IMG/VR virus record: IMGVR_UViG_2875703104_000002
Reading direction: 5' to 3' (one strand)
Length of the DNA: 37,887 nucleotides
Origin: a virus
Taxonomy: Duplodnaviria; Heunggongvirae; Uroviricota; Caudoviricetes
The notes under the pieces: generated by a model
Databases searched by the model: none
What the model was told of the DNA's origin: nothing
The model's input: the letters and a program-made list of their open reading frames with translations, nothing else
Position numbers and translations under genes: made by a program
Part shown: positions 1 to 26,443 of the stretch, piece by piece
Layout: every line of letters starts with the position of its first letter
Position numbering within the stretch: position 1 is the stretch's first letter

Positions 1-498
1 ATGACAGGAAGTCAGGTCATTGATGCTGAAGAGGACAGGCATAAACTGGTTGTAGAGTACAAGGATGCTCTGCAACCTGCCGATTTTTATCACAATTTCA
101 AACAACGGGGTATCCGCTCCGTACAGCTTATTCCCCATCTTGAATTTGATGACCGGGGCGATCTGACGGCCGCTTCGGTGACAGCAGAGCTGTGGGGGAA
201 ATTTTTAATTGCCCTGTTCGAGTGTTGGGTACGGGCAGATATCAGTCGTATTTCGATTGAGCTTTTTGACGCCACCCTACAAAAATGGTGTGGCAGCGAA
301 AACCCGCAACCGCGTCGTGGCTGCCAGGCGTGCGACTGGCATCGCCTGTGCCCGCACGCTCGGGAGGAGACGCCAGACAACGTGCTTTGTGCGGGCTATC
401 AGGCGTTTTATTCTTACTCCGCGCCGCATATGCGGGTGATGCGTGATCTGATAAAGCAGCATCGTTCTCCCATGGAGCTGATGACGATGCTGCGGTGA
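1..498 (+). CDS. yidF: Host radical-SAM/SPASM-type maturase-like protein (YidF-like); ORF begins at window position 1 so the true start may lie upstream
   Basis: 165-aa ORF with Cys-rich C-terminal cluster (CQACDWHRLCPH...C) typical of anaerobic sulfatase-maturase SPASM domains; convergent with emrD as in E. coli K-12 (from memory, not searched). Confidence 0.5.
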   Translation: MTGSQVIDAEEDRHKLVVEYKDALQPADFYHNFKQRGIRSVQLIPHLEFDDRGDLTAASVTAELWGKFLIALFECWVRADISRISIELFDATLQKWCGSENPQPRRGCQACDWHRLCPHAREETPDNVLCAGYQAFYSYSAPHMRVMRDLIKQHRSPMELMTMLR

Positions 499-505
499 CG
501 TGAGC

Positions 506-1696
506 TTAAACAGGCTGCCCCTGATGCGACATCCGCGTCGCCAGCGGTAGCCAGCACAGCACGATCAACAATCCCATTAAGGTCATCAACAATCCCAGGC
601 TGCCCTGACCGGTTTGCGGCAACATCGCAGAGAGCGACGCCAGCACGCCGGAACCAATGTTTTGCAGACCGCCGACCAGCGCGCCAGCGGTGCCCGCCAG
701 GAAGGGGAACGGCTCCATCGCGCCGCTGGTAGCCAGTGGAAACAGCATCCCGGCACCGAAAAAGAACAGCGCGGCGGGAATGAGCAGCGTCCAGACATTC
801 ATCACGCCAAACCAGTCGGGGATCCACATCAGCAAGCCAGCCAGCAGGCAACAGATAACCGACTGCCACATCAACGTTGAGAAGCGCTTATTGGGACGTC
901 CGGCAAACCATGCGCCAAAAAATGCCGCCGGAATCGGCAGAATAAACAAAATACTGACCGTCATACTGCTCAGCCCTAACACCGCGCCCATCAGCACGCC
1001 GGAGCAGGCTTCAAATGCGGCAATCCCGGCCAGACCGCCAATCAGCATCAGCAAATAACAGTTAAAACCGCTGTTACCGAAAAGCGTTTTATAACTGGTA
1101 AGCAGGCGCGTGCGCGGTGCGTCGACCGGACGCGTTTCCGGCATCCAGCGGGCCATACTGAAAGTCACACCGGCACAAAGAACCAACAAAAAGAGATAAC
1201 AGGCACGCCAGTTCCACATCGTATCCAGCAGACCGCCGATTAGCGGTGCGAGCAGCGGACTGACAAGAATCCCCATGTTTAACAGGCTGTTAGCGTGGCG
1301 CAACTGTGTCCGTTCATATAAATCGCGCGGCAAAGTACGCGCCATTACGCCGCCAACGCCGGTGCCCATCCCCTGCATCGCGCTGGCGGCAATCAATACC
1401 ATCAAACTGGAGGTCGTGACCGCGACCAGCGTTGCCAGCATAAAAATGGACATTCCGACGAGGATCACCGGTCGGCGACCCACGCGGTCGGAAATCGGGC
1501 CATAAAACAGCTGTGAGACACCGTAAGTCAGCAGATAAGCGCCCATTACGCTCTGCACCGCCCCTTCACGGACATTGAGATCGCGCGCCATATCGGCAAT
1601 AGCTGGAATATAAATGGTTTGCGCCATCTGACCGACGGCCACGAGTAATACCAACATCAATAACAAATTGACGTTTCTATGCCTTTTCATTATCAC
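506..1696 (-). CDS. emrD: MFS multidrug efflux transporter EmrD
   Basis: 396-aa ORF, highly hydrophobic with multiple predicted TM helices; sequence recognised as E. coli EmrD (N-terminus MKRHRNVNLLLMLVLLVAVGQMAQTIYIPAIADMARDL). Confidence 0.9.
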   Translation of the reverse strand: MIMKRHRNVNLLLMLVLLVAVGQMAQTIYIPAIADMARDLNVREGAVQSVMGAYLLTYGVSQLFYGPISDRVGRRPVILVGMSIFMLATLVAVTTSSLMVLIAASAMQGMGTGVGGVMARTLPRDLYERTQLRHANSLLNMGILVSPLLAPLIGGLLDTMWNWRACYLFLLVLCAGVTFSMARWMPETRPVDAPRTRLLTSYKTLFGNSGFNCYLLMLIGGLAGIAAFEACSGVLMGAVLGLSSMTVSILFILPIPAAFFGAWFAGRPNKRFSTLMWQSVICCLLAGLLMWIPDWFGVMNVWTLLIPAALFFFGAGMLFPLATSGAMEPFPFLAGTAGALVGGLQNIGSGVLASLSAMLPQTGQGSLGLLMTLMGLLIVLCWLPLATRMSHQGQPV

Positions 1697-1856
1697 GGAT
1701 GCTTTTATAAAAATAATTAGAATAAGTCACTACGCATTCCCATAAATGCGGGAGAGGAATCTATCACATTGATGAATGTTAGCCAGATATACGCCAGGAA
1801 TGGGGAATTGTTTAGCGGCAGAATATGTAAACAAAAGCGGCAATAAATGTTGCCGG

Positions 1857-1906
1857 TGAAGCGGCGCACGAAAAACGCGAAAGCGTTTCACGATAAATGC
1901 GAAAAC
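1857..1906. mobile_element. attR: Mu right-end (attR) terminus with MuA-binding sites R1/R2; terminal dinucleotide 5'-TG at 1857-1858
   Basis: Sequence TGAAGCGGCGCACGAAAAACGCGAAAGCGTTTCACGATAAATGCGAAAAC matches the 50-bp Mu R-end used in MuA in vitro transposition (from memory); host DNA immediately to the left. Confidence 0.85.
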
Positions 1907-1933
1907 TTTAGCTTTCGCGCTTCAAATGAAACA

Positions 1934-1955
1934 GCAGTATTAATTACTGCTTTTT
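1934..1955. terminator. Hairpin (GCAGTA-ttaat-TACTGC) followed by T5, overlapping the mom stop codon; possible bidirectional terminator
   Basis: 6-bp inverted repeat with 5-nt loop at 1934..1950 followed by TTTTT on plus strand and preceded by an A-run (U-run on minus strand). Confidence 0.3.
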
Positions 1956-2697
1956 ATTCATTACATGGGGATCGCTTAGGGTATGGCTGAACCTTGAATA
2001 GTTTGGTATTTAGCCGCTTCCTTGCTCGCTTGTTCAGGAATCTGATGTAGCGATACTGATTAAATTTGTGCACCACGGCACGCTCTTTATTAGCCCGTAA
2101 ATACACGCCTCGTTGTCCACCTCGCTTAATCGCGTTCATCGTTATCTCGTGATACCACTCACCATCCAGCTCGTAGAATGTACTTTCATGACTGCCAATA
2201 AAATCAAAATTCGACGCCTGATACACAACGCCTGCGCGTCCGCAGCGTTCGTCTGCAAAGGACTGAACCCACTCCACTGACGGATACAGTAACCTGATGG
2301 TTTTCAGTGCATAACTGATGACCCGTGATTCAGAGTTGCGGGGCATGTCATCGTGTAGCCACATGCGGTTCAACTCCATATAGCCCCGGTTATCCGTTTC
2401 AAGCACGACACGACGACCTGAGTTGGGGTTAAGGGCATATCCCCACTGGAGAACGCCAACCAGATCGCGTCCGCTGAATACTCCCAGGTGGAGGTAAGAG
2501 TTATTCACAAAACGGCGGGAATAGTGCTTTGTCTGAATAATTGTGCGGGCCAGCCAACAGGATATGGTTTCAACGCGCAGCTCCTTTGAACCATAGCCAA
2601 CAATCTGGCCTTCATACTCAATAACGCACGGTTTCGTCAGAATGCGTGATTTCTTCTCTTTTCCCACAATGTTTCTCCGTGGGATGCTCGCAGGCAT
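1954..2697 (-). CDS. mom: Mom DNA-modification (anti-restriction adenine modification) protein; true start may be downstream of the ORF-track start, near the com stop
   Basis: 247-aa ORF as last gene before the R-end, overlapping the 3' end of the com zinc-finger ORF, preceded by a GATC-cluster regulatory region; matches Mu com-mom architecture. Confidence 0.8.
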
Positions 2698-2806
2698 TCA
2701 GCATTATGATGTGACGTTTGCAACGCGGACACCTGATTTCAATGTGAACAAAGGAATCCGCCTTAAATAACAGTTTGTTGCAGTTTTTACAGCGAATTGA
2801 TTTCAT
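2618..2806 (-). CDS. com: Com, zinc-finger translational activator of mom
   Basis: 62-aa ORF with CxxC...CxxC zinc finger (CKNCNK...CPRCKRH); strong SD AGGAGG 5 nt upstream of ATG; overlaps mom. Confidence 0.8.
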
Positions 2807-2930
2807 CTCACCTCCTTTGCATCAATTCGCCACTATCTTAAAAAACATCATGAGTTGAGTGTGGTTATTGGGGCATAATCGATCTGTATTACCGATCGAT
2901 TCAATTGATTCGATCGTCGTTTTCTATATG
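2807..2930 (-). promoter_or_regulatory. mom/com late promoter region with three clustered Dam GATC sites (2881, 2894, 2912)
   Basis: Three GATC within 35 bp, 75-110 bp upstream of the com start; known Mu Pmom architecture (Dam methylation blocks OxyR; C activates). Confidence 0.6.
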
Positions 2931-3062
2931 TGTTCGCTACGGCTGGGTATCATTTCCGACGAGAATAAACAAAAATTAACCGAGTGGATGCTCTATGCGC
3001 AGAAGGTCGAATATACAGACACCTCCAGCCTGCCAGTAACGTTTCCCGAACAACCAGAATGA
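2931..3062 (+). pseudogene. 3' remnant of an alternative tail-fibre assembly gene (U'-like), convergent with U; N-terminal part missing
   Basis: Plus-strand ORF ends ...LTEWMLYAQKVEYTDTSSLPVTFPEQPE, resembling the conserved C-terminal motif of tail-fibre assembly proteins (compare U C-terminus ...[26 protein letters not shown]); only about 44 codons of homology, upstream part runs into the mom GATC region. Confidence 0.5.
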
Positions 3063-3090
3063 GAGAAGGCCCGGTATCGGGGCTTAATTT

Positions 3091-3618
3091 TTACTCTGGT
3101 TTTTGTGGCCATTCTGGCTTTGCTGTATCCACACGGCTGACCAGAACGCTGTAGCGTTCCCAGGCTTCCAGTCGTGTGCGCTCCTCATCCGTCGCCATAT
3201 TCAGCCTGACAGCGCGTTCCAGCTGCTGGATGACTGATTCAGCTTCGGAAAGCAATGCGGCCTTTTGTAATTCGGCCTGCTGTTGCTGCTCGTCTGCCGT
3301 ATAAATCCGTTTAACCACAGCTCCGTCCTTAAACAGCCACTTTCCTGAATCGTCGGCGCGACGATTGGCGGTGATATCGGGAACTTCGACAACGCTGTAG
3401 CCTGTAGGGTCCAGTGTTGAAGCGTCTCTGGTTACGGCCACAATAATATTGTTCTCGTCGTAAAGAATTTTTATTGTGTCCGGCTGAAAGTTCTTCACTT
3501 CCTCATACCAGTTTTTTCCGTCTTCTGACCACAGCCAGGCAACATTAAAATTTTTTGTTAGCTGATATTGCTCAACGGTTTTTGGATTGCCGGCGACAAT
3601 GTTTTTTAAATGCTGCAT
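3091..3618 (-). CDS. Tail fibre assembly protein (U-like, Tfa family)
   Basis: 175-aa ORF directly downstream of the tail fibre gene; C-terminal Tfa motif W-x-x-Y-x-x-L-x-x-VDT-x-x-PEWP. Confidence 0.8.
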
Positions 3619-3621
3619 AAA

Positions 3622-6266
3622 TTACACCTGTGACACGTTGTACCACGTTCCGTTAATTAACTTTTGTATTGGTCTGAATACTGCCGGATCGTCGCCATCA
3701 ACTTCGCCGACAATGCCAAGCCCGGTAATTACATGGCCTGATTTCTCATACATCACGCCTTTTTGCATGGTCTGAACAACACGTGTGCCAAGTCGGACAT
3801 CCCTCACGTATCGGCCATCAAAATTGCCGTAATCCGAGGGGTTAACGCGCCCCGTAATATTTACGGTTTTATTACTCTGAATGCTGCCGGAAACAAAGCG
3901 CATAACATGGACGTTATTAGCATAAACATCCAGATTACCATCACCATTTTGTTTAAAGCCCGTGTCATTATCACCCAAAACAATCGAATTACCGCCAAGA
4001 GCACTGGATGTTCCTATACCCAGAGCACCATTCAATTGACCACCAGATAACGGCAGTGCACCGACATCTCCCGCTGTAGGTTTTCGCGTTGTGGTATAAA
4101 ACTCAGACCAGTCAGCCTCGAATCCGTAACCGTCACGAGCAGAACGATAAAAAATACCACCGTTCTTATAATTAACGCGAAACTGGGCGGCGGGACAACT
4201 TCCTTCACCGATATTAAAATGAAGAATTAACGTTGATGCCCCACCAATATTTGCGTTATAGGCTCCGCTACTCCAGTTCCATCCAACGGCTTTATCATTC
4301 GCAACGGTGTCTCCTGTTTTTCCTGAAGCAAATGCACCAATATTTTTCGGCGTCAGGTTAATATCTGATGTTCCATCAAACGAAACGTTATTAATTTTAT
4401 TCCTGAAGCAAATGCACCAATATTTTTCGGCGTCAGGTTAATATCTGATGTTCCATCAAACGAAACGTTATTAATTTTACGGGCTGTTTTCAGCTTTGTT
4501 GCTGTCGCCGCATTGCCGGACAGTTCACCAGAAAGGCCAGCACTGAATGCCTGTTTCGCGCCCCATGTCTGGGCTTCGTCAATGATTGGTACTCGTCTTG
4601 TTGTGATCGTGCGGCTTCCCGGATTTCCTGAAATGCGCACCATAAAAAAGCGGTAGTTGGCTTTACTTACAGTGCTGCGCCATACATGCATTGAGCGCCC
4701 CGTACCGGAATCATCACTCGGACCAACTGCGATGTTTATCAGGTTGCCATCAATGACGCCCCAGTCCATACCGTCGGGAATATTGGTCATATTATCCAGC
4801 CGAACGGTTATCAGACTGCCCGGCACAAAATCGTAGGTCTGCCAGTCCAGACTGGATAGTTTTGCCACTGCGCCACCGATGCCCAGATTCAGGGGAAGTG
4901 AATAAGATGTGTAAACTTCCCGCCATTCGCTCCATGAGCTGCCGGTAAAAACGCGCTCAAACGTGCGACCTTTAAGGGTTGTACCTGTTCCGGCAGTTGT
5001 ATAACGCTGCCATACGTTAACACCATCAAAGCGCCTCAACACTTCCAGAATACCGAGGACTGTCACGCCGTTTCCGTCCAGTATTGGACCGTTGGTTGCT
5101 TTACCTGTAACGCTGTAAATACCTGGTGAAGTCACATCATTCAAATCCCCGTCGTAATAACGACTCTCTGACTGATGACCGACTCTTAACCACGGTTCCC
5201 ACTGTGGGTTCTCTGCATTCCATGTAGCAGAAAGGCAGCGAACATATACGTTCCCACGGCGGGTCGTATAGCGTTGCGTGCGTGAGTACCCACCACCCTC
5301 AAGAACTTCAAGGAGTCCCTGACCATAACTTCCTTCTTCCGGATAGTTGCGGTCAAATGAAGCGATAGAGCCACTACTGTTTCGCCATAAACCAAGATGC
5401 TCTGCGCCTCCTAGCGTGTTCAGGTCAATAGCTGTGCTCAGGGGGCGTGTTGCAGACTGAATCTGACGCCAGTAGCTCCACGGACCGTCTGAGCCATTCC
5501 AGGTGCCAGAAAGATTACGCATATAAACATTGCCAGTTCTGGTGGTATAACGCTGCATTCCGGAAAAATTACCGCCATTGAAGACCTCAAGAACACCGAC
5601 TGCACCGTCTTCAGGGAAATTTTTCTCCAGTGTTGCGTTGGAGGATGTGGATTTATACCAGACACCCACATAAGCCTTAACTGGACCAAATGTATTGATA
5701 TCAGCATCAACCGGCATTTCGCCGTTGTTTTTCATAAACGTCAGGCTGGTAACGCCAACATTGTCCAGAAAAGCTGATTTATCCTGGATATCTGCACCAT
5801 TCTGATTTTTCGCCAGACGTGAATTTGCGTTGTCATTTGCTGCCTTGACCGCTTTTGGCGTTGCGGCGAGTGCTTCGGATGTGCTGTTGGTAGCACTACT
5901 TAGCTGAACCAGCCCCTTTTTGCTCACGCTGGCATCATAAATACCCAGATTTTCACGTGCTGTGCGCTGTGCTGATGCCCCGGCAGTTTTTATTTCGCTG
6001 AGGTTATTTTTTATCAGCAGCGCGTTCTTGTTCATGATGGCTTTAATGGACAGTGCAAGCTGGTTTAATTTTGTTTTATCCGGTTGAATACCGGCTTCTT
6101 CCAGCGTGTTTAATAACTCCGCCTGCACAATATTAAACCAGTCCATGCCGGGCCATGTGATAACATTATTCCCGTCACCTTCTGAAAACCAGCGAACGAT
6201 AGCACTACGCTGGGCGGATACGGGCGGCATGACGGTTACGCCGCTGTCGTTATCAATATAAAACAT
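3622..6266 (-). pseudogene. Tail fibre protein (S-like), frameshifted by an 80-bp tandem duplication: 637-aa N-terminal ORF 4353..6266 plus out-of-frame C-terminal continuation 3622..4320
   Basis: Hand translation shows minus-strand frame continuous from 4398 to 3622 with no stop; ORF1 and that frame encode the same peptide KINNVSFDGTSDINLTPKNIGAFASG across the two repeat copies; removing one copy fuses them into about 854 codons. Confidence 0.8.
4320..4479. repeat. Perfect 80-bp tandem direct duplication (copies 4320..4399 and 4400..4479) inside the tail fibre gene
   Basis: Both copies read TTCCTGAAGCAAATGCACCAATATTTTTCGGCGTCAGGTTAATATCTGATGTTCCATCAAACGAAACGTTATTAATTTTA; 80 is not a multiple of 3. 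Confidence 0.97.
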
Positions 6267-11520: not shown

Positions 11521-14007
11521 TTACCAACCTGTAATGTAGTTATCGCCCGCGTAAATATTCAGCCCCATACCATCCTCGGTGACGCGGGAACTGGTCAGAC
11601 GTAACCCCTCGCCGAGTTCGACGCGCAACGAGGCTTCCGCATTGACTTTTTGTTCCTGCGGTTCCTTATCCGTGGCCGTCCATTTCTGATACAGGTCGGT
11701 TACAAAACCGCCCAGATACTCCCCGGCGACACTGCCCAGCGTGGCACCGGCAACCGTACCCAGCGGTCCGGCAAGGCTGCCAACGGCACCGCCGAGCCAT
11801 GCACCGGCTGTACTGCCAATTGCGCCTGCTTTTTCATGGGTTGACGCCTGTTCATCCATCAGGACGGGGGCAAGCTGGAGTGCCCCCATTACCGGGCCAC
11901 CCAGACGTGACAGGGCACGACCGGCACCTTTCCCCATCCAGCCCAGCGCCCCGGCACCTTTTGTCACAACCCGACCGATCGCACTGCCTGCAAGTTTGTT
12001 TCCGATACCGGAAAACCACCCGCCAACGGCACGCCCGGCATCAGCCAGCTTTCCGACCGTTCCCGTAACCAGTTGCCCGGCAGCACTGCCTGCAAGCCTG
12101 CTCAGAAGACCGGATTTACCGGGCAAAGGCTGTGGCGCAGGGCGTGGTATTACCGGCACGCCCGGAGATGGCACGGGCTGCCTGTTTCCGGCACCGGAAA
12201 GCAGTCTGCTGACAGTACGCCCGGCATCCGCCAGCGTTCCTGCCGCTCCCGTAACCTGCTGCGCGGCAGCGCTGCCTGCCAGCTTGCCCGGAAGACCGGA
12301 TTTAGCGGGCAAAGGGCGTGGCGCGGGGCGTGGTATTACCGGCACGCCCGGAGATGGCGCGGGCTGCCTGTTTCCGGCACCGGAAAGCAGTCTGCTGACA
12401 GTACGCCCGGCATGCGCCAGCGTTCCTGCCGCTCCCGTCACCTGCTGCATGGCAGCGCTGCCTGCAAGCCTGCCCGGAAGACCGGATTTACCGGGTAAAG
12501 GTCGTGGCGCGGGGCGTGCTGCTGCCGGAACGCTGGGTGGGGGTAATGGTGCAGGCCGTGCTGTTACCGGTACGCCGGGTGGGGGTAATGCCAGTACAGG
12601 GCGTGGTGCAGGTAATGCCAGCGGCTGTGGCCCGGACAGCAATAACGGCTGGCGGGGTAACAGCGTGGGCATTCTTCCGCCGCTCCGTACGCGACGACCG
12701 CCGCCACTCCCGTAGCCACCAAATCCACGGGGCCAGTTGATGACAAACACACGCTGAATGCCGATACCCTGCAACAGCGTCTCAGACGTCATGGCATCCG
12801 GGACCGGCAGGCCTGCCTGCCCACGTTTGCGGTTTCGCATCCAGCGCCACATACGACGCCCGGTTTTAAACGGATAACTGGCAACCTGCCATGAGGGTTT
12901 TGCCACGGCCCAGCCTGCTCTCAGGGCTTTATTGGCAAGCCAGACAGACACCAGAACAGCAGCCAGTTTTTTCAGGCTGACAATATTCTGGTCAACCCAT
13001 GCCAGCGCATCTTTACCCGGTTTCAGCCAGCGCCATAATTCCTGCGCCGCGATTTTTACCGTTCTGAACGTGGTCAGAAATTTCTGACCAATGTTTTCTG
13101 CCAGTGCGTCAAGTTCCCCGGATTTATCCGCCATGTCGTGCCAGTTAAGCACCCGGCGCATCTCGTTCTTGATTTCTTCAAAGGGGCCGCTGTTTGCCAC
13201 CTTTATGCGAAATTCAAGCAGGTTGGCTTCCATCTGTGCGAACATCCCGTCCCAGGAGTTCATCGCACTGGCTTGTGCACCTTTTGACTGTTCTGACAGC
13301 GTTCTGAATACCGTCAGAATGGATTTCATGCCCAGCTTGCCCTTTGTACCCAGATCACGGATTTTTTTAACGTCCGTTCCCGTTGCATCCGCCAGCGCCT
13401 GATAAACATTGATACCGTAACCGGTCAGCAGGTTGGCATCCGCCGCCGTGATTTGCTGGCGGGCAAACATCTGTTTCAGTTGCAGTGAGGCACCCTGTGC
13501 AGTGGGTAAATCCCAGCCGTGCATGGCCCCCTGATCCTGCAACATGGTGATGAACTGTTTCGTCTGTTCATCCGTCATGCCGAAGCCTTTCGACGAACGG
13601 ATCTCATCCAGAACACCACTCAGCCCCCACGTGGTGTCCTTCGCGTTCTGCTTCGCCCAGGCCATCATAGCCTGCGCTCTGACCTTATCGCCGTGATACA
13701 GCGAGTTCATAGCGATGATCTGCTGCTCACGCTGGGCGGCTGCACCAATAAACAGTTTATTGGCGGTGTAACCCACGCCAGCGATACCCAGCGCCCCGGC
13801 TGACAGCATTCGGAATGTACGGGTTGACAGAGAACCCATTCTGTCAATTGCACCAGAAACGCGCACAACCTCCATACGCAGGGCTCGCAGGGAACTCTGC
13901 CCACTACGGGACAGGGCGTTTATCTGGCTCGAATACTGGCGGGAACGCCGGGAAAGATTGCCATTAAGATCAATAATGACAGACGCCTTTAAGCGTTTCC
14001 CGGTCAT
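11521..14007 (-). CDS. Tail tape measure protein
   Basis: 828-aa ORF between tail chaperone and baseplate genes; Gly/Ala-rich C-terminal region, Pro-rich linker and internal 62-aa tandem repeats. Confidence 0.85.
11959..12516. repeat. Three tandem 186-bp (62-codon) repeats inside the tape measure gene (12331..12516, 12145..12330, degenerate 11959..12144)
   Basis: Near-identical DNA units starting TGGTATTACCGGCACGCCCGGAGATGG at 12145 and 12331; encoded units RPAPRPLP(G/A)KSGLPG(R/K)LAGSAA...PSPGVPVIP. Confidence 0.85.
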
Positions 14008-20279: not shown

Positions 20280-20750
20280 TTATTGCCTCAGAGCGGCGCT
20301 GACGCGTTTTCTGATGGCATCAAAAATTTCCTGTTCCCCGGTCTTATCCAGCCCCATATAAGGACGCGCAGGAACGCCTGCCGGGCGGGGTGCCATATCG
20401 GGTGTACCGCCCCACTGATGAATGGCAGCATAAATTTTTGGCGAACCAATCAGGGCATAATCCTGTCCATAATCGGTGGTAATGCTGCGTGCCAGATCGC
20501 CATGCAGGGTAAGGATACTGCCCGGAACAAAACCATGATCCTGACGCCATGCCAGCCACGAATCGCTCCACGCTTCCCAGCCTTTCCCTGTATCCGGGTC
20601 TGCCTGCCGTTCAAATGCCTGTTCCGTGGATGACAGCAGCGCCGCAGCTATCACACGGGGAATGACGCGGTCACGTGTGGCGGTTCCCAGTTCATCCAGC
20701 GCAAGCTGAATACGTCGCACATCCACGGCAACGTTCATATCAAGACTCAC
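20280..20750 (-). CDS. Virion morphogenesis protein (Mu G/gp31-like)
   Basis: 156-aa ORF, 4-bp overlap with upstream F-like gene. Confidence 0.7.
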   Translation of the reverse strand: MSLDMNVAVDVRRIQLALDELGTATRDRVIPRVIAAALLSSTEQAFERQADPDTGKGWEAWSDSWLAWRQDHGFVPGSILTLHGDLARSITTDYGQDYALIGSPKIYAAIHQWGGTPDMAPRPAGVPARPYMGLDKTGEQEIFDAIRKRVSAALRQ

Positions 20751-22102
20751 TTATTCACCTCCACATGCCCCTCCAGTATGTCAATCATCCCGTCAGCAAT
20801 CGCGGCTTCAAGCGACTGTGCAGATACGCGGCTGATACTGACCAGCACATCCGCCCGGTCATTCTGTTTGCTGACAGCCTGCGATGTTCTGACCACAACT
20901 TTTGCAGTGCCGTCGCGGGTTGCCACAACATACAGCAACTGGTGGTTCTCCCTGTCCCACAATACCGCCTGTGGTTTTGCCATCAGTGACGGCAGACGCT
21001 GTAAATCCTCCGGTTTCAGGGCGGCATCAGCAGTGGTCGCCAGACTTTTTCCGTTCATCACAAGCAGACGGGCTGGCATATTCCCGGTGCACTGATATAC
21101 GGCCTCCGCCACGGCTTCCGTCATAAACCCCAGCGCACGGACCTCATGTCCGGCCCGGCGTGATTTCGCCAGACGTTTAAGCCAGAGGGAAAAAGCAAGC
21201 TGACGCTCCCGGCTGTTATTCAGCGTCTGAACAACCTGCTCACGCAGCTGCGCGTCACGAACTTCCACCAGTTTTCGAATCAGTGCCTGATCCGTACCAA
21301 ATGCCGCCGAACCGGGGTTATATGACCAGCCCACATCCGGCGTCATTTTTACCCGACCGTTGTCAAACGTGGTTGACGATGTGCGGAAAATCTCTCCAGT
21401 GCTTTCATCCGTACCGGCATCCACTTCGCGGGTATTCATGAATGACGCACCATAACTGACCTGTAGCCCCAGTTCTTTCATGCGGGCCGCAGACAGCGCC
21501 CGGACGCGACAGCGGCAGTTCCAGCCATTGGGCGGGTAATGCGTTTGCCAGAAAATGTCGTCATACCGGAAAACCATATTATGCAGCCGCGCATGTTCCG
21601 GGCGTGTTCTGCCATCCATAACGGCAACGTACTGCCAGTACGGGTACAAATCGGCGGTATTCATCATCTGCGCATAACGTCCCGCCCCGTACGCCGTACG
21701 GGTATTGACGTTATAAATGGTTGCCAGACGACGCGGACTGCCCAGCTCGATTACCTTTGCGTTTCCGTCTGCATCCACGATGATTTGTTTTCCCCACCAT
21801 CCGAGTTTTTGCAGCCGTGGGGCCAGTGTGCGGGTAAATTCCTCACGGGTGATGCCTTCACTGACAGCCCGCTCCACTTCCTCACGGATAGTGGTCAGTA
21901 CATCCATCCGGGTGGCTTTGGCAACGGTAAAGGCGCGGGCGTGCGCGTCTGCCAGTTGTTCGTACCAGTTCCAGGTGATGTTGTAGCCTTTGGCGCGGAA
22001 ATACGCGACAGCCTCCTTTGGCGGGAGGCGTGCGGCATACGCCAGATCAATGGTCTGCTGCGGCATCCAGACGCCCCCATATATCGGCAACAAAAATGGC
22101 AC
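20747..22102 (-). CDS. Minor head protein (Mu F/gp30-like); start may be internal (alternative ATG near 22066)
   Basis: 451-aa ORF downstream of portal gene. Confidence 0.75.
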   Translation of the reverse strand: MPFLLPIYGGVWMPQQTIDLAYAARLPPKEAVAYFRAKGYNITWNWYEQLADAHARAFTVAKATRMDVLTTIREEVERAVSEGITREEFTRTLAPRLQKLGWWGKQIIVDADGNAKVIELGSPRRLATIYNVNTRTAYGAGRYAQMMNTADLYPYWQYVAVMDGRTRPEHARLHNMVFRYDDIFWQTHYPPNGWNCRCRVRALSAARMKELGLQVSYGASFMNTREVDAGTDESTGEIFRTSSTTFDNGRVKMTPDVGWSYNPGSAAFGTDQALIRKLVEVRDAQLREQVVQTLNNSRERQLAFSLWLKRLAKSRRAGHEVRALGFMTEAVAEAVYQCTGNMPARLLVMNGKSLATTADAALKPEDLQRLPSLMAKPQAVLWDRENHQLLYVVATRDGTAKVVVRTSQAVSKQNDRADVLVSISRVSAQSLEAAIADGMIDILEGHVEVNK

Positions 22103-23585
22103 GGGTCAGCATGTCGATAAGTTCTGCATCATCCATCTGCGGATATAATGAAGCGGCTTTGTTCATGGCGGCTTCCGGGCCATCTTTCAGCACAGAAAAA
22201 ATGACGGGTTTCAGCAGGGGATCAACCGAACGCTGCCAGTCTTCCGGTGAGACGCCCATCCGGTCGATATCATCCTCCTGCGGGATATCTTCAGCGGATA
22301 ATGCAGCCTCTTTCTGCGGACCGTTATCCATGACGACCGGTTGAGCAGTAAACACGGCTTCATCACCGACCGGCTGCGGAATATGGAGTTTTTCCTGTAT
22401 CCAGGAGACGGGAATACGCATTCCCGCCGCCAGTTTCGGAATGGCGTCAGACAGTGCCGTAATATCACCCGCTTCGCTGGTATCAAATACAATGCCCGGC
22501 AGGCGGTTAATATCAATGGTGCTGTCACTGTTCAGTGCCAGCAGGGGATAAATCAGGTCACGGTTAATACTGCGGGCAAGCTGGCCCACATCCGCGTTAC
22601 GGATTTCCCGGCGAACCTCATCATGCACTTCACCCAGCGACCGTGCACCTTTATCGCCAGCCTCTGTGGTCAGGGTGCCGCCCAGAATGGCTTTTGAAAT
22701 CGCTTTTTCTGCCCAGCCAATCATCGCCATAAAGGGGTCTGACTGACCATCTGCAGCGCTCTGAAAATCCAGCGTCATCCCCATCGGAATAATGCCACCG
22801 GCACGTCGCCCGATATCCATCACAGCCTGCATCAGCGTGGCTTTCTCACGGTTCGTGGAGCCGGTCGGATATTTACCGACGCGCATGGGAAGTCCGTAAA
22901 TTTCCAGGAACTCTGCAAAATCACGCACGGAATAGTTTTTAAAAATAAAAGGCCAGATAAGCGTGCGCACAAGGCCATTGGTGCCGACATATCCGGTGCG
23001 GGATTTGGCCCGGTGCATAAACCAGCCGAACGGTTGCAGCTCCAGCCCGTGATAAGACGCATCACGCAGGCGTAATTCGTTCAGATTGTCGGGGTTCGCG
23101 CAGAACAGCGCCGGATCGCGATGATGCAGCGCCACCGGCACGCGCATTTTCCCCAGCCACCCCCATTCAATCTCCTGCATGGAATAGCCCTTGAGAATGG
23201 CATCACCGGCATCAAACAGGGCATCTTCAAACCACGCCGCATCATGCAGATATTCATTCAGCATGTCGGCGTCTTTTTTCTCCTGTGCGCTGGCATCACG
23301 TGCCGGAGCGATGCGCCATTCCAGCGCCTGAATGGCAAGGCGGCGCTTGCTCAGTTCGGAAAAAAGGTGGGTGTCCTTTTCTTCCATATCAAAGGCCAGG
23401 TCAGCCTGTGCGGTCAAATCACCGCGTTCGGCATCACGCAGCATCTGCGCGGCCCGGTTCGGCGTCACACCACTGGAAGGATGCTCCTGCGTGCGCTTCA
23501 TGACCATTGCCAGCTCATCGCTGCGGGTCTGCATTTCATCGTCAAAATCAAACGGCTGCCCGGAAATATCCAGAATACGGCCCAT
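22047..23585 (-). CDS. Portal protein (Mu H/gp29-like)
   Basis: 512-aa ORF directly downstream of large terminase with overlapping stop/start. Confidence 0.8.
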   Translation of the reverse strand: MGRILDISGQPFDFDDEMQTRSDELAMVMKRTQEHPSSGVTPNRAAQMLRDAERGDLTAQADLAFDMEEKDTHLFSELSKRRLAIQALEWRIAPARDASAQEKKDADMLNEYLHDAAWFEDALFDAGDAILKGYSMQEIEWGWLGKMRVPVALHHRDPALFCANPDNLNELRLRDASYHGLELQPFGWFMHRAKSRTGYVGTNGLVRTLIWPFIFKNYSVRDFAEFLEIYGLPMRVGKYPTGSTNREKATLMQAVMDIGRRAGGIIPMGMTLDFQSAADGQSDPFMAMIGWAEKAISKAILGGTLTTEAGDKGARSLGEVHDEVRREIRNADVGQLARSINRDLIYPLLALNSDSTIDINRLPGIVFDTSEAGDITALSDAIPKLAAGMRIPVSWIQEKLHIPQPVGDEAVFTAQPVVMDNGPQKEAALSAEDIPQEDDIDRMGVSPEDWQRSVDPLLKPVIFSVLKDGPEAAMNKAASLYPQMDDAELIDMLTRAIFVADIWGRLDAAADH

Positions 23586-25306
23586 TACCAGCCCCCTCGT
23601 TCAAACTGGTGATAATCATCAAAATCATCGTTATCAACATCATCACCACGGTGGCGTGGTGGCAGCGCCTGTATGCTGTCCTCGTCGATAACAAAACCAT
23701 TCATATAAGACGCCCTGACAGCCATACAGAGCGCCACGGCAAAGTCGCCATGTCGTCGGCCTTTACCGCCTTCATCTTTTGTGCGCCCCTTATCAATCTG
23801 CGGAATACCTTTGTCCACCTTGATGTGGAGCAGGTCATCAAGTGTGGTCTGGTGCCGGGCAATCGTGATGTTCTGCGCTTCAAACTCGCCTTTCAGTTTC
23901 GGCATCCACTCCTGATACCAGGATGCGGTCAGATTCACACAGTCGATCATCTCCGGGCCATAAATCAGACGGGCGGCTTCTGCCAGATAACCGCCGTTAC
24001 CGGTGGCATCAAATGCAGCGCCGGTAAAACGGGGCAAACGGGACAGAATGAATAAAAGGATTTGTCGCTGCTGGTCATAGGTCACATTACGCAGCTCCAC
24101 GCGGAAACATTCGCGTTTGCGTAAGTCAGGAGTGATGGCAAGCGGAACAAACACCGTAAGGTCACCACGGCGTGCAAAGTCTTCGCCCAGTACGTGTTTA
24201 TTGAGCGGCGACAGCGCATCGAGCAACGGGAGCAGCTCCTGTTCACACCAGTCCTGAACGATGCCGTGGCGCATTTGTGGTGTCAGCGATTCAAAATCGT
24301 CCGGGGCTTCAAAACGCAGAATCGGGATATCCCGCGCTGGCGTCATGGCGGCTTCAATCAGCACGCGTGACAGATAAGCGCCCCCGGATTTTTTAGGAAT
24401 GCAGCCGTATTCCTCGTCGGCACTCTCTTTATTCGGCGCATTCCGGTACAGGCCATCACGCCAGGCTTTTTCCGCTTCCGGCGACCACGGCTGATTCGTG
24501 ACGTAACAGATACGTCGGTACAACCCGTCAGCGATGGCATCATCCAGCGTGATGCGGTGAACGCTGTAATCCTTGCGCCCCTCGCGCGCATCCTGAATGT
24601 ACTGGTTAAACAGGTTATCGACGCCGTTATGTGTCGATATGATCCGCACGCGGGCACCCCACATGGTGAGAGCAAAAGCCGCTTTCAGCAGTTCGTCCAG
24701 GGCTTCATGAAATGCCGCCTCATCAATCACCACGTCCCCCTGCAAACCACGCAGGTTAGACGGACGGCTTGACAGCGCCTGCACCTTAAATCCGCTGTTA
24801 GGGAAACGGATCATATAAGTGAGGATTTCTTCTTTTTTGTCGCTGTCCCAGAAGGTCTGCTCCCATACGTCAGCCTTTGCCAGTTGGTTAAAGGCGCGGG
24901 CAAACAGGGCACAGGCGGCAATGTATTCCAGCGCCATTTCCTGACGGGAACCCACATAAAAAACGTTGCGACCGCCACGGCGACGCGGCTTTGCTGCCGT
25001 CATGACATTGCGGCCCGCTTCGGCCCATGTCAGACCGGTACGACGGGATTTTTCAGCAATACAAATCTGGCTTTCATCCTCAAACCAGCGGCGCTGATAG
25101 CCCAGAAAAACCGGTTCATTAGATGGCTGGGCGTTAGTGATGTCTGTAACGATCTCGACACCAAGTTTGGTTGCTTCTTCCTGAAGATCAATCTGACGGG
25201 GTTCACTTGACGGAATCAGTTTTTTGCCCCGGCTATTTTTTTCATACCCCATTATTTTTTCAGCCATAATACTTCGGTTTTCTTTAAATACCTGAGGGAA
25301 CGTCAT
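23585..25306 (-). CDS. Terminase large subunit (Mu gp28-like); alternative start at 25267 (MAEKIMGYE...)
   Basis: 573-aa ORF at the head of the structural block; acidic C-terminus; the ATG at 25304..25306 shares two bases with the plus-strand ATG at 25305..25307. Confidence 0.85.
   Translation of the reverse strand: MTFPQVFKENRSIMAEKIMGYEKNSRGKKLIPSSEPRQIDLQEEATKLGVEIVTDITNAQPSNEPVFLGYQRRWFEDESQICIAEKSRRTGLTWAEAGRNVMTAAKPRRRGGRNVFYVGSRQEMALEYIAACALFARAFNQLAKADVWEQTFWDSDKKEEILTYMIRFPNSGFKVQALSSRPSNLRGLQGDVVIDEAAFHEALDELLKAAFALTMWGARVRIISTHNGVDNLFNQYIQDAREGRKDYSVHRITLDDAIADGLYRRICYVTNQPWSPEAEKAWRDGLYRNAPNKESADEEYGCIPKKSGGAYLSRVLIEAAMTPARDIPILRFEAPDDFESLTPQMRHGIVQDWCEQELLPLLDALSPLNKHVLGEDFARRGDLTVFVPLAITPDLRKRECFRVELRNVTYDQQRQILLFILSRLPRFTGAAFDATGNGGYLAEAARLIYGPEMIDCVNLTASWYQEWMPKLKGEFEAQNITIARHQTTLDDLLHIKVDKGIPQIDKGRTKDEGGKGRRHGDFAVALCMAVRASYMNGFVIDEDSIQALPPRHRGDDVDNDDFDDYHQFERGGW
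25241..25270 (+). promoter_or_regulatory. Putative sigma70-like promoter for the plus-strand gene (-35 TTCATA 25241..25246, -10 CATAAT 25265..25270)
   Basis: Hexamers with 18-bp spacing read by eye about 35 bp upstream of ATG; lies within the 5' end of the terminase ORF on the opposite strand. Confidence 0.3.
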
Positions 25307-25793
25307 GTCACCAAAAGCAATAAAACTACTTGAAATATTTTGTGAAACAGAATTAAAGCAATCTATGGATACTGTTCAATTTGTCTCAATAAACGGATGG
25401 GAAACACTTCAGCGCCTTTGGCCCCTGAATGAACGATTCACACCACGCATAGAGCAAATCAGAACGATTAGCTACAGAAAGCAATTTGAAAAAGCCGCAG
25501 ATAACGCCATTGAGGATTTTCTGATGAAGGATGATGACTGGTCAGAAATTCCATTAGTTGTCTGGCGTGTTCTTCTGGAACGCCATAATCAAGCAACGAT
25601 TCTCTGCGTAACTAATGCACTCGCCAATAACACCGAACTTATGCACATCCCTGTCGGACTTTCTCAGTCGGCACAAACAAAATTTGCAGTAGCTTATTTG
25701 TATTACGCAATGAAGCTCCCATATAAAGTGCTCGGTGAATCACAGCTTGACATTGAATCACCGTTTGAGTATCTGAACACCCGGCTACAGTAA
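25305..25793 (+). CDS. Hypothetical protein (162 aa), reverse-oriented accessory gene between terminase subunit genes; function unknown
   Basis: Only plus-strand ORF in a non-coding gap of the minus-strand late operon; SD GAGGGA 6 nt upstream of ATG; strongly AT-rich (first 60 nt about 27% GC); followed by hairpin terminator; no TM segments or catalytic motifs recognised. Confidence 0.75.
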   Translation: MSPKAIKLLEIFCETELKQSMDTVQFVSINGWETLQRLWPLNERFTPRIEQIRTISYRKQFEKAADNAIEDFLMKDDDWSEIPLVVWRVLLERHNQATILCVTNALANNTELMHIPVGLSQSAQTKFAVAYLYYAMKLPYKVLGESQLDIESPFEYLNTRLQ

Positions 25794-25806
25794 AAGCCTT
25801 TCGATG

Positions 25807-25839
25807 GGCGCTGATTAGCAGCGCCTTGTAATCATTTTT
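25807..25839 (+). terminator. Rho-independent-like terminator (GGCGCTG-attag-CAGCGCC then TTGTAATCATTTTT) downstream of the plus-strand gene
   Basis: 7-bp perfect stem, 5-nt loop, T-rich tail, 14 bp after the stop codon. Confidence 0.5.
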
Positions 25840-25852
25840 CATAACGTAACTC

Positions 25853-26443
25853 CTACGCTTTACCCAGCAACACATCACGGATACGCTGCTCCAGTTCTTC
25901 GCTGATACCATCCTGCCCGCGCAGTTCTTCACTGACGGCGTTTGCCGCTTCTTCTGCGAATGCCTGGCGGATTTCTTTCTCGCGCCGGTGGCTGGACATT
26001 GCCGTGGATTCCAGACGCTGTGCCGCCAGCATGGCATTTTTCAGCAGGTCAATATCCACGTCAGATTCCGGGTTTTCGATTTGCCGCATCATGGCCTTAA
26101 AAAGCTGGCTGCGGGCCATTTCCAGAATCAGCTTTGTGGTTTCTCCCATTGGCTTGTCGCCAAGTTCTGCGGTCAGTGCTGACGTCATTTCACGCATCTG
26201 TCGCAGGTTATGGCCTACCTGTTCGACGTTCGTCGCGTAACGGTTCAGACCGGAACGGGAGAGTTTCATCTCATCCGGCAGGCCAGCGTCTTCAATCAGT
26301 GCGTTAATTTCTTCCAGAATGCGGGCCTGTGGGATCGCTTTATCACGCAGCATTTCATGCAGCGTTTTACGTACGTTTTCTGGCAGTAAATCCACTTTTG
26401 AAGCCCGGCCCCGTGTTTTCCTGTCCATCACGCCTCCTGTCAT
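25853..26443 (-). CDS. Terminase small subunit-like DNA-binding protein (Mu gp27-like)
   Basis: 196-aa ORF immediately upstream (in transcription order) of the large terminase region. Confidence 0.65.
   Translation of the reverse strand: MTGGVMDRKTRGRASKVDLLPENVRKTLHEMLRDKAIPQARILEEINALIEDAGLPDEMKLSRSGLNRYATNVEQVGHNLRQMREMTSALTAELGDKPMGETTKLILEMARSQLFKAMMRQIENPESDVDIDLLKNAMLAAQRLESTAMSSHRREKEIRQAFAEEAANAVSEELRGQDGISEELEQRIRDVLLGKA

Follow-up and report, generated by a model that had tools for sequence, protein, structure and literature searches.

We analyzed a 37,887-nucleotide stretch of DNA (IMG/VR record IMGVR_UViG_2875703104_000002), referred to below as the window, which is a segment of an Escherichia coli chromosome consisting of a host flank at positions 1..1856 followed by a Mu-type prophage. 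The junction between the genes for the small terminase subunit and the large one (TerS and TerL) of this prophage harbors an accessory cassette of two genes: an open reading frame (ORF) of 162 codons on the plus strand, here designated orf162, and a 67-codon ORF on the late, minus strand, which we call the small ORF. We tentatively favor the reading, by analogy, that the cassette encodes a defence and counter-defence pair organized like Tab/anti-Tab of the Pseudomonas aeruginosa Mu-like phage JBD26 and made from unrelated proteins. This reading draws on the same layout as in JBD26, the conserved position and orientation, the evidence that the small ORF is a real gene, an asymmetry in the occurrence of the two partners, and a second, unrelated gene pair at the same junction. 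Whatever its function, the pair presents a clean case of an antisense protein-gene overlap that extends through 50 codons and leaves a measurable signature of dual coding, and annotation pipelines have missed it. The elements of the cassette are as follows.

25166..25837: accessory cassette, 672 bp, approximately 41% GC, delimited by blastn breakpoints against Mu, by composition, and by megablast against Mu, D108 and SfMu
25305..25793, plus strand: orf162, predicted to encode a 162-residue helical cytoplasmic protein of no known family (based on the ORF, its homologues, an AlphaFold2 model and the position of Tab)
25294..25299, plus strand: Shine-Dalgarno sequence GAGGGA of orf162, 5 nt before the ATG; a purine-rich element occupies the same place in related loci
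25241..25270, plus strand: candidate sigma-70 promoter of orf162, TTCATA-18-CATAAT, predicted by a scan; its -10 element overlaps the TerL start codon
25806-25813/25819-25826, plus strand: GC-rich hairpin identified by folding and covariation, 13 nt past the orf162 stop codon and inside codons 6-13 of the small ORF
25639..25842, minus strand: small late ORF of 67 residues (MKNDYKALLISAHRKAF...), in the position of anti-Tab, overlapping orf162 convergently by 155 nt
25850..25854, minus strand: Shine-Dalgarno sequence AGGAG of the small ORF, overlapping the TAG stop codon of TerS (25853..25855), 7 nt before the ATG; other loci have an equivalent element

The cassette and orf162

The original prediction, made from the letters of the window, was an AT-rich plus-strand ORF with a good Shine-Dalgarno sequence, inserted at a place where canonical Mu has no gene. 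Sequence comparison bore this out. The ORF is present and begins 5 nt after GAGGGA, and the cassette is an insertion relative to Mu, D108 and SfMu, all of which lack orf162. According to blastn, the cassette stands in place of 70 bp of Mu, a stretch that takes in the initial ~25 terminase codons; the spacing between gp27 and gp28 in Mu is 7 bp. The GC content of orf162 is 41.1% (26.7% in the first 60 nt) as opposed to 52.7% for the window, and its GC content at third codon positions (GC3) is 37.7%, compared with ~57% in each of the two terminase genes. Elsewhere in the window, we saw no convincing gene on the plus strand.

The homologues of orf162, together with an excess of third-position variation in codons 1-112 (0.57 at position 3 versus 0.30 and 0.21 at positions 1 and 2), indicate that this ORF did not arise by chance but is a real gene conserved at the protein level. 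A search of 5.8 billion proteins returned 16 clusters of homologues with 51-99% identity, nearly all of 162-163 residues, originating from Escherichia, Salmonella enterica, Aeromonas and uncultured phages; every one is annotated as "hypothetical". IMG/VR contributed eight further loci with 49-73% identity. Wherever DNA context was available, the homologue lies at the TerS/TerL junction, on the strand opposite to these genes, even in phages with a TerS of another family (DUF1804). The exact sequence of orf162 is found on 246 public E. coli contigs. The gene is rare in E. coli: none of the 44 Mu-type prophages that we surveyed among complete E. coli genomes (5,426 in all) carries it, the cassette had no megablast match in these genomes, and tblastn of orf162 gave none in 50,697 phage and 72,556 plasmid records. 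Relative to Mu the cassette is an insertion, yet its divergence among these relatives identifies it as an old cassette that has diverged along with Mu-like phages. The original prediction of a horizontally acquired moron was partly borne out: an extra opposite-strand gene of deviant composition is there, but it belongs to a cassette conserved across several genera and is not a single recent acquisition.

Searches of Pfam, PHROGs, NCBIfam and PADLOC with the orf162 protein gave nothing significant, and the PDB, searched both by sequence and by profile, gave chance matches only. We modeled the protein with AlphaFold2 from an alignment of 17 sequences. The model is confident and helical (pLDDT 83, pTM 0.78), with a low-confidence tail at residues 139-162, and Foldseek retrieved nothing for it from the PDB and BFVD (E>0.3, TM about 0.2). 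By fold, the protein comes closest to HI1480 of Haemophilus influenzae (PDB 1mw5), with 6% sequence identity; neither Foldseek nor the sequence profile recovered this match. In one IMG/VR relative (L018, 5001..5485), a single-base frameshift cuts orf162 at residue ~118 and lengthens the small antisense ORF to 84 residues; this may reflect either a genuine pseudogene or a mistake in the assembly.

Two signals accompany orf162 and not the small ORF. The CATAAT hexamer, which overlaps the start codon of the late gene that comes first past the cassette, did not vary among the 14 upstream regions inspected, where protein identity goes as low as 49%, and is missing from Yersinia phage Tongde, which has no orf162. 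The candidate sigma-70 promoter of the original prediction thus has a conserved -10 hexamer, but its match to the consensus is only 9/12, and the scan yielded sites no more often than it did in shuffled sequence. The second signal is the hairpin, which folds at about -12.5 to -14.8 kcal/mol in the window and is strong in all 14 orf162 loci (-8.6 to -20 kcal/mol). Pairing is kept at 96% over these loci, three of the eight pairs show compensatory changes, and none of 500 shuffles matched the covariation score. Three loci with the small ORF but without orf162 show the hairpin decayed to a 4-bp stem (-3.8 kcal/mol). As for the claimed hairpin plus T-tract, the conserved and covarying hairpin stood, and the T-tract did not. 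We rejected a canonical intrinsic terminator, because the T-tract is imperfect and not conserved in either direction and the terminator scan made no call. The hairpin is likely a terminator or a 3'-end stabilizer of the orf162 mRNA, and the hexamer and the hairpin are best read as the -10 element and the 3' end of an independent orf162 transcript.

The cassette also reshapes the terminase. The cassette supplies the first ~34 codons of TerL (25166..25267), which are unlike those of Mu (MAEKIMGYEKNSRGKK... in the window versus MNTRENNLKALHAP... in Mu), so that the TerL N-terminus is chimeric. The orf162 ATG had been noted to share two bases with a terminase start on the other strand. This is true of the start of the longest ORF (25306), which we rejected; the probable start is at 25267 (MAEK...), 37 nt from the orf162 ATG, and an MAEK/MTDK start with a gap of 36-37 nt is kept in the eight related loci in which the terminase gene directly follows the plus-strand gene. 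On the late strand, 371 nt are left untranslated between the small ORF and TerL. The more distant related loci (L009 at 5757..5963, also L017, L019, L020, L022 and L023) have a third small late-strand gene between the orf162 homologue and TerL, encoding 65-69 residues (MADKLI..., phrog_19649); the TerS of L009 is of the DUF1804 type. The first codons of this gene, MA[DE]K, match the chimeric TerL N-terminus of the window lineage.

The overlapping late-strand gene

The original prediction had described orf162 as a lone gene, which the small ORF contradicts, as it overlaps the last 50 codons of orf162 antisense (codons 113-162). Its ATG lies 10 nt past the TerS stop codon. Equivalents of 57-71 residues, each with an ATG and a Shine-Dalgarno sequence directly after TerS, are found wherever the orf162 locus is intact, including the relatives with only 49% identity. 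This antisense frame contains 4-10 stops per locus in orf162 codons 1-120 and none afterwards, being stop-free only at codons about 113-163, and stops do interrupt the two remaining antisense frames within the overlap. Under random synonymous codon choice, the chance of an open frame is 0.04-0.29 per locus and roughly 1e-7 jointly for seven well-separated lineages. The synonymous variation of orf162 is also reduced in the overlap: where a pair of sequences has the same amino acid, the codons differ at a rate of 0.553 outside the overlap and 0.336 inside (P<5e-5). No 50-codon block outside the overlap falls below a synonymous diversity of 0.52, and the amino-acid diversity is alike in both parts.

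Homologues of the small ORF also occur without orf162. Phage Tongde has an unannotated homologue of 58 residues with 42% identity over the full length, in which the DNA similarity is confined to the first 17 codons. E. coli RM8082 has one of 63 residues with 49% identity, annotated by PGAP (WP_238013955.1), and nine complete E. coli genomes have a junction, here called the A21 type, with a homologue of the small ORF and no orf162. These homologues and the reduced synonymous variation led us to reject the notion that the conservation of the small ORF is a mere by-product of orf162. The comparative evidence indicates that the small late ORF is a real gene and, therefore, that both strands encode protein across 155 nt. 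No gene caller has annotated it in the orf162-carrying loci, and the alignment of the small ORF retrieved nothing in a related-locus search, even though the IMG/VR loci visibly contain the ORF.

The small ORF has weak matches to phrog_220, "minor head protein" (3e-4), and to Pfam Phage_Mu_F (E 0.15, in one of ten members only), because of which we compared it with the MuF/gp30 protein of the same prophage. The segment SAHRKAFTVAG...HRAL.MGAS of the small ORF aligns with DAHARAFTVAK...ERAVSEGIT at MuF residues 33-85, with blastp E-values of 1e-3 and 5e-5. By hhalign, the small-ORF profile matches the single MuF sequence with an E-value of 1.7e-4 and a profile of seven MuF N-termini with an E-value of 1e-7 (probability 94%, 53 columns). 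Since PF04233 spans MuF residues 59-188, only about 27 of the aligned small-ORF residues lie inside the Pfam domain, and the small ORF falls below the Pfam threshold. These alignments point to a homologue of the N-terminal segment of MuF that stands alone, and not to a MuF protein. A profile search of the PDB with the small ORF returned only a designed-repeat artefact, and an AlphaFold2 model of the small protein from its single sequence was of low confidence (pLDDT 60). The 82-residue profile phrog_30922 weakly resembles the small ORF in its first half (25642..25842, E 0.017) and the TerS C-terminus in its second half (25853..25945, E 4e-4), an order opposite to that in the genome.

Terminase-junction variants and possible functions

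The terminase junction is variable among Mu-type prophages. In our survey, 31 of the 44 prophages have the bare Mu junction, nine have the small MuF-like ORF only (A21 type), three have a different gene pair (SE11 type), and one, in RM8082, has the small MuF-like ORF together with the second pair; at least five junction states exist among E. coli Mu-type prophages. The relevant loci outside the window are the following.

L028 (E. coli SE11, NC_011415.1) 588..1026 and L025 (E. coli RM8082) 1886..2500, late plus reverse strand: second gene pair, with phrog_21398 for the late gene
L001 (vB_YpM_Tongde, MT591577.1) 2173..2346, minus strand: Tongde homologue of the small ORF, directly after TerS and followed by a tightly coupled, annotated 64-residue gene

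In SE11, a late gene of 64 residues directly follows TerS, and a reverse-strand gene of 61 residues converges on it with an overlap of 11 nt. Taken together, the second pair comprises a late gene of 64-65 residues and a reverse gene of 61-64 residues with a 3' overlap of 11-26 nt, and is unrelated to the orf162 pair. The reverse gene of RM8082 is annotated with 83 residues, and its homology to SE11 begins at Met20. Tongde has both late-strand genes, which are candidate antidotes, and no reverse-strand gene. Tests for homology between the 68-residue gene of L009 and Tab, and between the 64-residue late gene of Tongde (m64) and anti-Tab, were negative. In every locus examined, orf162 was accompanied by the small ORF, and reverse-strand genes were always paired with their specific late partner, whereas the late partners also occur as orphans. 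This asymmetry is as expected of a blocker and its antidote.

Tab is an 83-residue protein encoded between TerS and TerL of JBD26, opposite to the late operon (Patel et al. 2024, Nat Commun 15:1644, PMC10884400). It is expressed constitutively from the prophage by its own promoter and blocks the tail assembly of invading phages, with the tape measure protein as its target (PMC10884400). Anti-Tab, encoded directly after TerS on the late strand, is produced in the lytic cycle only, binds Tab and could not be deleted alone (PMC10884400). According to the authors, no phages other than close relatives of JBD26 are known to carry homologues of Tab (PMC10884400). In the JBD26 record, TerS (12877..13377) is followed by atab on the late strand (13377..13628), tab on the opposite strand (13582..13833) and TerL from 13864, so that tab and atab overlap convergently by 47 nt and tab starts 30 nt from TerL.

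If the orf162 cassette works in the same manner, orf162 would be transcribed in the lysogen from its own weak sigma-70 promoter, with the transcript ending at the conserved hairpin, and its protein would block a late step of superinfecting Mu-like phages. Upon induction of the prophage, late-operon transcription would run antisense through orf162 and yield the small protein together with the terminase, and the small protein would then neutralize orf162, sparing the prophage. The resemblance of the candidate antidote to the MuF N-terminus suggests a target. In the most speculative part of our proposal, which we regard as rather unlikely, the small protein would be a decoy of the MuF N-terminus, and orf162 would act on MuF or the portal, i.e., on head assembly. 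We attach similarly little confidence to a wider version, in which the terminase junction of Mu-like phages from Pseudomonas, E. coli, Salmonella and Aeromonas would be a dedicated slot for non-homologous pairs of assembly blocker and antidote, orf162 would block head assembly at the MuF/portal step with the 67-residue protein as decoy antidote, and lytic Mu-like phages, Tongde among them, would escape by gathering orphan antidotes.

Several observations weigh against a Tab-like pair. The hhalign probability is 0.06% for orf162 versus Tab, and orf162 has no significant PHROG match, whereas Tab hits phrog_14530 at 1e-58; for the small ORF versus anti-Tab (phrog_13614), the probability is 0.12% and the PHROG matches differ. 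PADLOC-DB assigned no defence family to orf162, giving only a chance-level match to Csx15 (E 0.008, 14 bits). A defence role, one of those originally proposed for orf162, is the best-supported guess, given the position and orientation shared with Tab/anti-Tab. The weakness of the orf162 promoter noted above also counts here. Moreover, the co-occurrence of orf162 and the small ORF is no independent evidence of a functional link, because their physical overlap forces co-inheritance. Finally, in the complete E. coli genomes searched, the small ORF occurs without orf162 (the nine A21-type genomes and RM8082) and never with it, and the small ORF may therefore have a head-assembly function of its own.

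The last point leads to the strongest competing explanation, a doubtful one in our estimate, that the hot spot houses two unrelated genes: a moron expressed in lysogeny with another role, such as host fitness, regulation or nucleic-acid binding, in the case of orf162, and an optional late-operon accessory of head assembly or packaging in the case of the small protein. The occurrence of the small ORF without orf162 in Tongde, the A21-type genomes and RM8082 fits this explanation, as do its resemblance to a virion protein, the lack of a defence-family match for orf162, and the location of its best fold match, HI1480, in a Mu-like prophage region. It leaves unaccounted for that orf162 never occurs without the small ORF, that the layout follows tab/atab point for point, and that a second, unrelated pair has the same late-plus-reverse arrangement at the same junction. 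Another explanation, which we consider improbable, takes the cassette as a regulatory module with secondary proteins, in which convergent transcription would keep leaky terminase expression down in the lysogen or set the timing of the TerS/TerL ratio. The candidate orf162 promoter does lie over the TerL start codon, the transcripts would be fully convergent, and the untranslated 371 nt of the late strand would suit such a role; however, the orf162 protein is under strong purifying selection and has a confident fold, and Mu, D108 and the 31 E. coli prophages with a bare junction manage without the module.

Less probable still is a single-gene moron with an untranslated small ORF, whose openness and low synonymous variation would stem from RNA constraints (the terminator hairpin, structure at the mRNA 3' end, or antisense pairing with the late transcript). 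A conserved hairpin is indeed present in the region, the open-frame probability for any single locus is only 0.04-0.29, and no gene caller recognizes the small ORF in the orf162 loci. Yet the hairpin covers 21 nt and lies outside orf162, while the synonymous constraint covers ~150 nt inside it; the ATG and Shine-Dalgarno sequence are kept right after the TerS stop codon in all loci; and there are protein homologues without orf162 or DNA similarity, one of them annotated by PGAP, in addition to the MuF profile homology. We give the least credence to orf162 as an early anti-defence or host-takeover protein, expressed from its own promoter and acting on host immunity. In keeping with this, the orf162 protein is small, helical and an orphan, and its gene occupies an accessory hot spot of the phage, but such a protein would need no late partner and would normally be encoded in the early region, and the reverse orientation within the late operon fits prophage-expressed morons.

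Should the Tab-like reading be true, the principle of Tab/anti-Tab, a constitutive assembly blocker with an antidote in the late operon, would reach beyond Pseudomonas to enterobacterial and Aeromonas Mu-like phages by way of unrelated proteins. The junction of the terminase genes would emerge as a conserved hot spot, and the MuF homology of the candidate antidote would offer a concrete guess at the target.

Prophage setting and comparison with known systems

The host flank (emrD-yidF-ysdE-yidG, 1..1856) is 100% identical to several E. coli strains, and alignment with Mu places the right end of the prophage at ~1857. The prophage is ~97% identical to Mu and D108 across most of its length, with the phage genes on the minus strand. 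The genes that bear on the comparison are listed below.

25853..26443, minus strand: small terminase subunit TerS of the Mu gp27 family (Pfam Phage_Mu_Gp27, 1.4e-52; phrog_426), the upstream late-operon neighbour of the cassette
23585..25267, minus strand: large terminase subunit TerL, homologue of Mu gp28 (phrog_2; Pfam Terminase_6N)
20747..22066: full-length MuF/gp30 gene of the same prophage, after the portal gene

The invertible G segment of Mu and gin are missing from this prophage. Its tail-fibre region (1954..6266) consists of a 637-residue fibre gene and genes of 137 and 175 residues, all on the minus strand, adjoined by a 247-residue ORF at the position of mom in Mu. Two related loci, L005 (15004..15420, plus strand) and L010 (9675..9992, plus strand), contain reverse-strand ORFs of 138 and 105 residues without a Pfam match beside gemA/mor in the middle region, which may be further morons.

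The deviant composition, its own Shine-Dalgarno sequence, a plausible promoter and the conserved hairpin make orf162 look like a moron, a term reportedly defined by Juhala and colleagues in 2000, for which HK97 gp15 is an example. Like a moron, orf162 is absent from close relatives, deviates in GC content (41% versus 53%), and lies within the late operon with a predicted promoter and a downstream hairpin. Unlike a moron, it forms an overlapping pair with a late-strand gene and belongs to an old, diverging module of some lineages, no recent one-off.

The comparison with the MuF/gp30/SPP1 gp7 family (PF04233) concerns the small ORF. It shares the region around residues 33-85 and the motif AH.(R/K)AFTVA ... 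G(A/I)(S/T) with MuF of the same and related phages. Its product is only a fragment of 57-71 residues encoded after TerS, whereas MuF is full length and encoded after the portal gene. The MuF protein gp7 of SPP1 binds the portal, and the role of the MuF/gpF family itself is unclear (PMC5576092).

The closest parallel in organization is Tab/anti-Tab. In both cases, a cassette resides between TerS and TerL of a Mu-like phage, with one gene opposite to the late operon, starting 37 nt (orf162) or 30 nt (tab) from the TerL start. A small partner gene directly follows TerS on the late strand in all intact loci, the two genes overlap convergently at their 3' ends, and the partner can be an orphan while the reverse gene is never alone. 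The systems differ in that orf162 encodes 162 residues and Tab 83, and the overlap is 155 nt instead of 47. The small ORF starts 10 nt past the TerS stop codon, whereas atab overlaps TerS by 1 bp, and the small ORF is a homologue of a MuF fragment. The orf162 hosts are Enterobacteriaceae and Aeromonas. By this analogy, the cassette is best classed as a non-homologous version of a known kind of prophage defence and counter-defence.

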